Positions 42,739 to 44,926 of a stretch of 64,000 nucleotides of DNA are shown here, one piece after another (positions within the stretch are counted from its first letter, which is position 1; each line of letters starts with the position of its first letter). The notes beneath the pieces are model-generated. The model did not search any database and was not told where the DNA came from. It saw only the letters and a program-made list of their open reading frames with translations. The position numbers and the translations under genes are program-made. The stretch spans positions 337,838,001 through 337,902,000 of the forward strand of contig OZ024741.1 in assembly GCA_964016885.1 (NCBI GenBank), read 5' to 3'. The DNA comes from Eledone cirrhosa (Eukaryota).

Positions 42739-44926
42739 TAGGAATAAATGCTCTGAAATAGCGATATATATGTGAATATAGACATAGAATATTCGAAAAT
42801 ATTCTGTATGTTTATAATAAACATTTTGAAGACCTAATCGCTATAGAATAGAATACGTCACGTATTACAATTAGATTCTCGATAAAAGCAAGGGAAGTAA
42901 TCTACGCGTTTCATTCTCGTTAGAAATCATCAGGACTACATATCCAGTGCTTTTATCGAGAATGACACAGCTAGAGACTTATAGAATACTTAGCTGTGTA
43001 CAGGAACTGGTTTGAAAGAGCGGTTGCCGGTCCGGCAGAAATTAGAAATAGGAATAAATGCTCTGAAATAGCGATATCGCTATTTCAGAGCATTTATTCC
43101 TATTTCTAATTTCTGCCGGACCGGCAACCGCTCTTTCAAACCAGTTCCTGTACACAGCTAAGTATTCTATAAGTCTCTAGCTGTGTCATTCTCGATAAAA
43201 GCACTGGATATGTAGTCCTGATGATTTCTAACGAGAATGAAACGCGTAGATTACTTCCCTTGCTTTTATCGAGAATCTAATTGTAATACGTGACGTATTC
43301 TATTCTATAGCGATTAGGTCTTCAAAATGTTTATTATAAACATACAGAATATTTTCGAATATTCTATGTCTATATTCACATATATATCGCTATTTCAGAG
43401 CATTTATTCCTATTTCTAATTTCTGCCGGACCGGCAACCGCTCTTTCAAACCAGTTCCTGTACACAGCTAAGTATTCTATAAGTCTCTAGCTGTGTCATT
43501 CTCGATAAAAGCACTGGATATGTAGTCCTGATGATTTCTAACGAGAATGAAACGCGTAGATTACTTCCCTTGCTTTTATCGAGAATCTAATTGTAATACG
43601 TGACGTATTCTATTCTATAGCGATTAGGTCTTCAAAATGTTTATTATAAACATACAGAATATTTTCGAATATTCTATGTCTATATTCACATATATATCGC
43701 TATTTCAGAGCATTTATTCCTATTTCTAATTTCTGCCGGACCGGCAACCGCTCTTTCAAACCAGTTCCTGTACACAGCTAAGTATTCTATAAGTCTCTAG
43801 CTGTGTCATTCTCGATAAAAGCACTGGATATGTAGTCCTGATGATTTCTAACGAGAATGAAACGCGTAGATTACTTCCCTTGCTTTTATCGAGAATCTAA
43901 TTGTAATACGTGACGTATTCTATTCTATAGCGATTAGGTCTTCAAAATGTTTATTATAAACATACAGAATATTTTCGAATATTCTATGTCTATATTCACA
44001 TATATATCGCTATTTCAGAGCATTTATTCCTATTTCTAATTTCTGCCGGACCGGCAACCGCTCTTTCAAACCAGTTCCTGTACACAGCTAAGTATTCTAT
44101 AAGTCTCTAGCTGTGTCATTCTCGATAAAAGCACTGGATATGTAGTCCTGATGATTTCTAACGAGAATGAAACGCGTAGATTACTTCCCTTGCTTTTATC
44201 GAGAATCTAATTGTAATACGTGACGTATTCTATTCTATAGCGATTAGGTCTTCAAAATGTTTATTATAAACATACAGAATATTTTCGAATATTCTATGTC
44301 TATATTCACATATATATCGCTATTTCAGAGCATTTATTCCTATTTCTAATTTCTGCCGGACCGGCAACCGCTCTTTCAAACCAGTTCCTGTACACAGCTA
44401 AGTATTCTATAAGTCTCTAGCTGTGTCATTCTCGATAAAAGCACTGGATATGTAGTCCTGATGATTTCTAACGAGAATGAAACGCGTAGATTACTTCCCT
44501 TGCTTTTATCGAGAATCTAATTGTAATACGTGACGTATTCTATTCTATAGCGATTAGGTCTTCAAAATGTTTATTATAAACATACAGAATATTTTCGAAT
44601 ATTCTATGTCTATATTCACATATATATCGCTATTTCAGAGCATTTATTCCTATTTCTAATTTCTGCCGGACCGGCAACCGCTCTTTCAAACCAGTTCCTG
44701 TACACAGCTAAGTATTCTATAAGTCTCTAGCTGTGTCATTCTCGATAAAAGCACTGGATATGTAGTCCTGATGATTTCTAACGAGAATGAAACGCGTAGA
44801 TTACTTCCCTTGCTTTTATCGAGAATCTAATTGTAATACGTGACGTATTCTATTCTATAGCGATTAGGTCTTCAAAATGTTTATTATAAACATACAGAAT
44901 ATTTTCGAATATTCTATGTCTATATT
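42739..44926 (+). repeat. 310-bp hammerhead-bearing tandem array (about 6 copies) preceded by an inverted copy; retrozyme-like
   Basis: tatttcagag recurs at 43081, 43391, 43701, 44011, 44321 and 44631; inverted arm 42739-43075; palindromic centre gcgat|atcgc. Confidence 0.95.
43188..43276 (+). ncRNA. type I hammerhead with extended stem I (first of six; others at +310 steps)
   Basis: gtagtc-CTGATGA-t-ttct(aacg)agaa-t-GAAA-cgcg-TA-gattac (43212-43254), enclosed by attctcgataaaagca / tgcttttatcgagaat. Mirror copy in the inverted arm. Confidence 0.85.

Follow-up and report, generated by a model that had tools for sequence, protein, structure and literature searches.

How does a repeat that encodes no protein come to lie, in two opposed orientations, inside a microsatellite? 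The question is raised by a locus in a 64,000-nucleotide stretch of the Eledone cirrhosa genome (assembly GCA_964016885.1, contig OZ024741.1, forward-strand positions 337,838,001 to 337,902,000; this whole stretch is called the window), where an array of 310-bp units, each bearing a predicted hammerhead ribozyme, adjoins an inverted copy of the same unit within (TA)n. An earlier note, made from the sequence alone, had suggested a retrozyme copied from a circular RNA with the help of neighbouring Penelope-like elements (PLEs). Our results indicate that the element is very probably a non-LTR retrozyme (LTR, long terminal repeat), mobilised by PLE machinery and recently active. As for the mechanism, we give some preference to a model in which a Penelope-like reverse transcriptase (RT)/endonuclease is primed from both target strands on one RNA, probably a 310-nt circle.

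Structure of the Array at the Window Locus

Units 1 to 5 of the array show 0 mismatches among them, and unit 6 agrees with them up to unit position 300 and ends at 44926, in keeping with the earlier count of about six apparently identical units. The inverted arm of 1.1 units described ahead of the array, in (TA)n, proved to be a perfect 338-bp mirror of it (42738-43075, centre at 43075/43076), with TA sequence on both flanks. The unit was rightly called non-coding: its longest ATG-initiated open reading frame (ORF) is 30 amino acids (aa) long, and it shows neither protein coding nor LTR structure. A sister duplicate of the locus, whose flanks are 98% identical, does lack the array, as had been claimed, but it does not offer a clean empty site, since the same (TA)n gap carries two other insertions there.

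A Dispersed Family of 310-bp Units

The window array belongs to a repeat family with a 310-base unit and no protein, which has inserted well over a thousand times in this genome. The exact 43-nt core of the window hammerhead has 4,033 matches in the 3.0-Gb genome, and a degenerate version of this core has 17,758 (9005 + 8753). Patterns joining the unit directly to (TA)n were found 1,352 times (681 + 671) for one end site, named A, and 1,294 times (637 + 657) for a second, named B; reversed-pattern controls of the core and end patterns gave 0 matches. At the loci examined, the identity of the arms to the window unit is mostly 97-100%. The family shows structural hallmarks of non-LTR retrozymes, namely units within ~150-450 bp, at least two consecutive complete type I motifs and a high-copy dispersed distribution, and it is a source of kilobase palindromes that represents roughly 0.2% of the genome (17,758 x 310 bp of 3.0 Gb).

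In contigs from sequencing runs (independent or source run), TA runs adjoin the unit at 43387 and at 43402-43415. When runs X1, X2, X3 and X6, which carry four different organism codes, were compared with window 43077-43440, the unit was almost unchanged; X1 and X2 each gave one closed 340-nt contig, with one difference, and X3 gave 843 varied contigs. The closed 340-nt contigs and the joint leading 310 nt back were not used as evidence, because tandem DNA gives them as well as circles.

Two Fixed Ends, One per Arm

The loci read comprised 8 found by similarity, the first 60 of the 100 A ends listed, 36 listed B ends without a listed A partner and 2 selected by the core; all those beyond the 8 similarity-found regions lie on one contig (C1). 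In the complete two-armed insertions, window included, the arms are head to head, and one of them ends at A and the other at B in 83 cases out of 83, with 0 A/A and 0 B/B combinations. This set includes 53 insertions picked by their A end and 20 picked as B ends without a listed A partner, and 82 of the 83 are independent, as L208 repeats the junction of L063 and adjoins a gap. Outside it stand L039, which has a complex centre and whose outer ends are also B and A, seven loci at a gap or edge (L031, L036, L048, L080, L085, L218, and L233), and single arms, 14 of them B-only and 4 A-only, suggesting that each arm can form alone. Four extra loci picked by the core alone gave two A/B pairs, one single arm and one exception (L314, see below).

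Outer ends abut TA-like sequence in 123 of 132 cases, and a tail with a modal length of ~35 nt lies on one end only, between site B and site A, the latter being further 3'. The note had expected dispersed arrays with permuted ends; the dispersal was found, but each arm has its own constant outer end at one of two sites, and variation is confined to the inner ends. An inverted truncated copy on the 5' side, a one-ended tail and an AT-rich or microsatellite target characterise PLE insertions, for which an inverted truncated copy and a tail of 30-40 nt at one end have been described (PMC8557442). The likeness of the inverted arm and TA target to PLEs, already seen at the window locus, extends to a Penelope-type insertion anatomy in the complete two-armed insertions.

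An inverted arm is thus a normal component of the element, and at about half of the loci it exceeds the other arm in length. Of the 83 insertions, 43 have the longer arm on the A side and 40 on the B side; arm lengths, with means of 5.2 and 4.1 units, are uncorrelated (rho 0.11) and near exponential (Kolmogorov-Smirnov p 0.057). At the centres (n = 83), the arms overlap by 1-8 nt in 48 cases, by more in 10, are joined bluntly in 7 and are separated by filler in 18, with scattered inner ends. Inner ends at most 10 nt from the predicted ribozyme cut site are rare (2/166 vs 11.2 expected), which suggests that a cleaved 5' end is not where synthesis terminates. A test for an excess of inner ends at the cut site was negative, and their depletion may partly reflect the placement of junctions in a 16-bp internal repeat. 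At one locus (L055:4437-4708), 272 bp from another repeat, plentiful on contig C25, lie between the two arms at the centre; a PLE origin of this insert was ruled out by the surrounding sequence.

The strict pairing of one A with one B end favours two coordinated primings. Two independent complementary DNAs (cDNAs), one from each site, would account for this pairing, for either arm being the longer one and for single arms of both kinds, and we consider priming from both nicked strands to be likely. Purified PAc, a PLE protein, was reported to nick and extend both target strands, is a predicted dimer and has two RT starts bounding the tail (PMC11167929).

Predicted Hammerhead Ribozyme and RNA Folds

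The core nucleotides CUGANGA, GAAA and NUH and the three helices of a type I hammerhead are all present in the sequence. Stem I is formed by GTAGTC (43212-43217) and GATTAC (43249-43254), with CTGATGA at 43218 and then GAAAC-GC-GTA, and the predicted cut after GTA at 43248 recurs each 310 bp (43558, 43868, 44178, 44488, and 44798). Stem III has 2 bp and a 2-nt loop, within the palindrome ACGCGT. The U-U mismatch that had been said to open stem II does lie at its base in the window unit, with A-U there in 16 of 63 insertions. The GUA site, the palindrome, the 16-bp extension of stem I and the extra hairpins (43152-43186 and 43346-43365) that the earlier note had assigned to each unit were likewise recovered.

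The whole unit folds better than 100 out of 100 shuffled sequences (z -4.1). Stem III with its 2-nt loop cannot fold in the monomer model (ViennaRNA), and the ACGCGT palindrome can pair between two ribozymes, so that cleavage would take place in multimers, and circles of a single unit would escape it. There is a precedent in the axolotl, which has weak ribozymes that work as dimers (PMC7229834).

Unit Variants and the RNA Template

The comparison of variants was restricted to the 49 loci with at least two full units per arm. The majority variant was identical between the arms in 47 of these, with 23 variants in all (shuffled mean 6.9, maximum 15), and many variants are private to one locus but present in every unit of both arms. 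Since the arms agree in variant and the loci differ, both cDNAs most likely come from one template. Over 193 overlapping unit positions, 58 sporadic changes were confined to one arm, as expected if the template is one unit long. The cut site was traversed at least twice in 105 of 128 arms.

Changes that damage the ribozyme or the stems make up 1 of 29 array-wide changes versus 44 of 105 sporadic ones (Fisher p 3.5e-5), and in the ribozyme region alone at most 1 of 9 array-wide changes is damaging (p 4e-4). Among 13 units from the family and its sisters, two-sided change was seen at 26 pairs, a count that kinship inflates and that 0 of 500 shuffles reached; the covarying elements are stems I and II and two 3' hairpins. 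Positions 3 and 8 of the core, a pair reported to be required (PMC11167929), are C-G in 7 of these units, U-A in 6 and mixed in none. In the sister families (L111-L150, L044, L082, and L095), stem III is longer, and U3-A8 takes the place of C3-G8 in 6 of 13 aligned units.

On these sequence comparisons, a circle is the template that we would choose as the main one, with reservations. Rolling reverse transcription of a 310-nt circle, as the earlier note had it, is tentatively kept as the best template model, except at five loci, described below, that fit linear multimers better.

Sister Families and the Search for a Helper

A variant of the tail has 5,263 further matches in the genome, which belong to older sister retrozyme families. 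In 40 sister regions, mostly with older relatives of 315-340 bp, the 140-nt domain around A and B is kept and the ribozyme part has diverged; this domain is probably an RT-binding element. It is predicted to comprise a helix (43307-43313/43387-43393), hairpins at 43327-43343 and 43346-43365, and two helices past the tail.

Numerous intact ORFs of near-identical sequence (832, ~900, and 1217 aa) occur in at least three PLE families, which makes active machinery plausible. In the window, PLE insertions occupy 1945-7108 (1217-aa family), 7104-12610, 21442-23870, 24892-31439 (832-aa family) and 50755-52352; genome-wide, the intact ORFs of the 832-aa and 1217-aa families often occur as inverted pairs. 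When the masked window and 68 regions were searched with the unit by BLAST (word 7), only sister retrozymes and TA noise were returned. A profile of the domain matched only retrozyme insertions in the window and 50 GIY-YIG regions, in 60 regions of the intact 832-aa and ~900-aa families, and in 15 regions of the 1217-aa family, whose loci end 1.5 kb past the RT match, so that the 3' end is covered only in the window copy. A degenerate pattern for the Naiad endonuclease gave no match, which is not evidence of absence, and none of four motifs from the unit turned up in the readable part of the PMC8557442 supplement.

Two window PLEs were read with paired ends; their arms end at the same base in one and ~160 nt apart in the other. 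The ~900-aa family has a tail of ~45 nt, whose sequence is unrelated. The proposal that the neighbouring PLEs are the helper was therefore not upheld, as they have no detectable sequence in common with the unit and, in the two that were read, a different end geometry. Two further candidates were rejected: an assembly gap separates the PLE at L048 from the array, and its 3' end is unrelated; another Poseidon-like copy, in L130, likewise shows no relation.

Proposed Mechanism of Insertion

In the model that we prefer, transcripts of the array would self-cleave, probably as double hammerheads because stem III has 2 bp inside a palindrome, and a host ligase would close the monomers into circles. 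A borrowed Penelope-like RT dimer would bind the conserved 140-nt domain, and the two strands of a (TA)n target, once nicked, would prime on the same RNA, with synthesis beginning at B in one active site and at A in the second. The cDNAs would run for ~4-5 turns each before their 3' ends are joined, and a minority of insertions would likely derive from uncleaved multimers. The most specific form of this model, in which one RT dimer runs two simultaneous rolling reverse transcriptions on one 310-nt circle from starts 35 nt apart, is put forward tentatively. If true, it would give a common origin to retrozyme arrays, to the tail of PLEs and to their inverted architecture, and paired rolling reverse transcription would have produced, in vivo, well over a thousand of the insertions seen in this genome.

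Alternative Explanations

Several observations weigh against this model or call for caution. The isolated 43-nt core folds no better than shuffled sequences (z 0.0), and the Rfam covariance model RF00163 gives no match in the array at E<=1; it does detect another hammerhead of the window (39375-39419). The older locus L314 consists of an A end and a 33-bp stub that stops inside the tail, and near-mirror centres exceed expectation (12/83 vs 5.6, p 0.01), the window centre itself being a perfect mirror. Arm-to-arm gene conversion after insertion could inflate the sharing of variants. At five loci (L054, L065, L074, L075, and L094), a minority variant occurs in both arms, so that a monomer circle cannot be the sole template, and at L094 the same two outer units differ in both arms. 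Long arms carry periodic variants, which indicates that some of their length is due to post-insertion amplification. A 163-bp deletion derivative of a sister unit, ribozyme-less and keeping only the end domain, forms a tandem array at L149:5615-6200, and may mark the minimal cis element. PAc, the only PLE assayed in vitro, did not need the hammerhead and used mainly unprocessed RNA as its template (PMC11167929), and 8 of 9 predicted Xenopus retrozymes were uncleaved in vitro (bioRxiv 10.64898/2026.07.22.740005). Finally, no helper with a homologous 3' end was found in the regions searched, which are a sample of 10,596 GIY-YIG candidates.

Some of these observations would fit well if the same Penelope dual priming usually took a linear, uncleaved multi-unit transcript as its template, the arrays then regrowing and being homogenised by unequal crossing-over. 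The five loci agree with a mixed multimer, the PAc results (PMC11167929), the ribozyme-less tandem at L149 and the local amplification in long arms point in the same direction, and a weak stem III predicts slow cleavage. However, the 23 variants in 49 loci, many of them private in all units, would need frequent single-unit bottlenecks and regrowth, the 58 unshared sporadic changes contrast with 3 loci sharing changes at the same outer index, and one would hardly expect the ribozyme to be conserved if its cleavage did nothing but destroy templates. We consider it unlikely that such transcripts are the usual template.

It is also conceivable that a single cDNA was made, whose 3' end folded so that the second arm is a DNA copy, the tail arising through endonuclease resolution of an intermediate, as proposed in PMC8557442. 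The perfect mirror centre in the window, the excess of near-mirror centres and the shared variants would then be explained directly. Nevertheless, such a fold-back needs a fixed order of the arms with the copy shorter, whereas the longer arm is A at 43 and B at 40 of the 83 loci; arms of nearly equal length show no enrichment (16/62 vs 12.4 expected, p 0.15), 71 of 83 centres are not near-mirror, and both types of single arm occur. This explanation appears improbable.

A route proposed for vertebrate retrozymes (bioRxiv 10.64898/2026.07.22.740005) would make the unit the pseudo-LTR (pLTR) of an autonomous PLE, detached after 5' truncation and amplified in place as an immobile satellite, and some long arms do amplify locally. 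We hold this to be very improbable: no RT or GIY-YIG ORF is joined to the unit in 68 + 38 family regions and no PLE ORF is joined upstream in 40 sister-family regions, both arms are multi-unit with one variant, and the family has its own variant turnover under constraint at the RNA level. The outcome that would have spoken against the earlier note, a unit that is the fixed pLTR of an autonomous PLE, was thus not encountered in these regions. That the inverted arm or the copy number is a fold-back artefact of assembly or library, as the zero-loop perfect palindrome at the window locus and the gaps beside L031, L048 and L208 might suggest, is scarcely credible given two precise end sites at ~1,300 places each, mostly asymmetric centres with microhomology or filler, and run contigs in which the unit adjoins TA runs.

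Other Elements in the Window and Genome

The coordinates of the features of the locus are collected in Table 1.

Table 1. Features of the retrozyme insertion in the window (q: position within the 310-bp unit, q1 = 43077).
Feature	Position	Strand	Remarks
(TA)n target, left	42507..42737	.	
A arm, 1.1 units, tail included	42738..43075	-	Outer end is site A (q27)
Tail, ~35 nt (q303-q27)	42738..42772	-	Outer end of A arm only; mirror of 43379-43413
Hammerhead copy in inverted arm	42897..42939	-	
Head-to-head junction at self-complementary ATAT	43072..43079	.	Perfect mirror; most other loci have an offset here
B arm, 6 tandem 310-bp units	43076..44926	+	Outer end is site B (~q300-302, within AT run)
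310-bp array	43077-44926	+	6 units; Tandem Repeats Finder period 310, 6.0 copies
Hairpin ACACAGCTA/TAGCTGTGT	43152..43186	+	Weakly conserved among sister families
16-bp stem I extension around ribozyme	43188-43203 with 43261-43276	+	Fold z -6.4
Type I hammerhead core with stems I-III	43212..43254	+	Motif read from sequence; in each unit
Domain kept across sister families	43307..43445	+	Brackets sites B and A; candidate RT-binding element
(TA)n target, right	44927..45054	.	

Matches to miRNA-type Rfam models fell under the gathering scores and were discarded as palindrome or microsatellite noise, and a sigma-70 promoter scan was disregarded at this animal locus.

The sister duplicate belongs to a tandem segmental duplication (98%) covering 31692-35033 and 38640-41971 of the window, with caspase-domain ORFs (40801-41673, 290 aa, PF00656; a shorter 208-aa frame at 34108-34734). 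Its TA gap carries a 1.2-kb PLE 3' fragment (35886-37087) and a 416-bp palindromic element (35034-35449), which is also found in (TA)n at 15798-16216. A separate 193-bp hairpin element in (TA)n at 42314-42506, with two different arm ends, recurs at 411-510 and in L035, L120 and L130, and is probably another non-autonomous head-to-head element. At 23955-24892, 1.9 identical copies of a 485-bp unit lie between TA runs; scans found no canonical hammerhead there, and it is possible that this unit is a ribozyme-less tandem element.

The canonical type I hammerhead at 39375-39419 (RF00163, 31.7 bits) has a counterpart at ~32430-32470, both on the minus strand, in a fragment that ends in (TA)n and was duplicated with the segment. 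Unrelated type I hammerhead repeats with a core ending in GAAACTAGTH were seen in L043, L045, L046, L051 and L091, and are likely other retrozyme families of this genome.

Comparison with Known Systems

In LINE-1 twin priming, two target-primed cDNAs on one RNA are joined through microhomology into an inversion. There, one primer lies at the poly(A), the other is internal and variable, and such products are a minority, whereas here both starts are fixed and pairing is the rule.

Endonuclease-containing (EN+) PLEs and non-autonomous Chlamys such as MRC1 share with the present family the inverted 5'-truncated copy, the one-ended tail and the microsatellite targets, and non-autonomous Chlamys relatives also form multicopy head-to-tail insertions (PMC8557442). 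However, non-autonomous Chlamys usually resemble an autonomous family at the 3' end, and no such resemblance was found here among the PLE regions searched; most Chlamys, and the Naiads, are without canonical hammerheads, whereas the retrozyme unit has a type I core (PMC8557442). Penelope/Poseidon PAc of Anolis resembles the family in its two RT starts, 30-40 nt tail, AT-rich targets and nicking and extension of both strands, and also in requiring RNA downstream of the start sites (PMC11167929). In contrast to the retrozyme, PAc is autonomous and starts inside its ORF, and no strand difference in its start site was seen in vitro, whereas the insertions described here use each site once (PMC11167929). 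The origin of inverted copies and one-sided tails in PLEs is debated between two RT starts and endonuclease resolution, and this family lets such models be counted; for in vitro work, it further narrows the candidate RT-binding RNA to 140 nt and the minimal substrate to 310 nt.

As for retrozymes, no published description of head-to-head pairs with a one-sided tail was found in the mostly open-access texts consulted, repeat databases and the supplements of retrozyme papers lying outside that search, and the main text of bioRxiv 10.64898/2026.07.22.740005, in its accessible part, does not mention tails, palindromes or orientation. The animal non-LTR retrozymes described so far (PMC7229834; bioRxiv 10.64898/2026.07.22.740005) have, like those studied here, non-coding ~300-bp tandem units with low GC and one type I hammerhead each, reach thousands of copies and occur with PLEs in the same genome. 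They were described as head-to-tail repeats, whereas here two arrays lie head to head with a one-armed tail and no pLTR homologue was found. Their dependence on PLEs has so far been argued from co-occurrence and pLTR similarity in these two papers; in the present family, the PLE insertion signature is found on the retrozyme itself. The class is thus already known, and it is the anatomy of the paired-end insertions that ties it to PLE enzymes.
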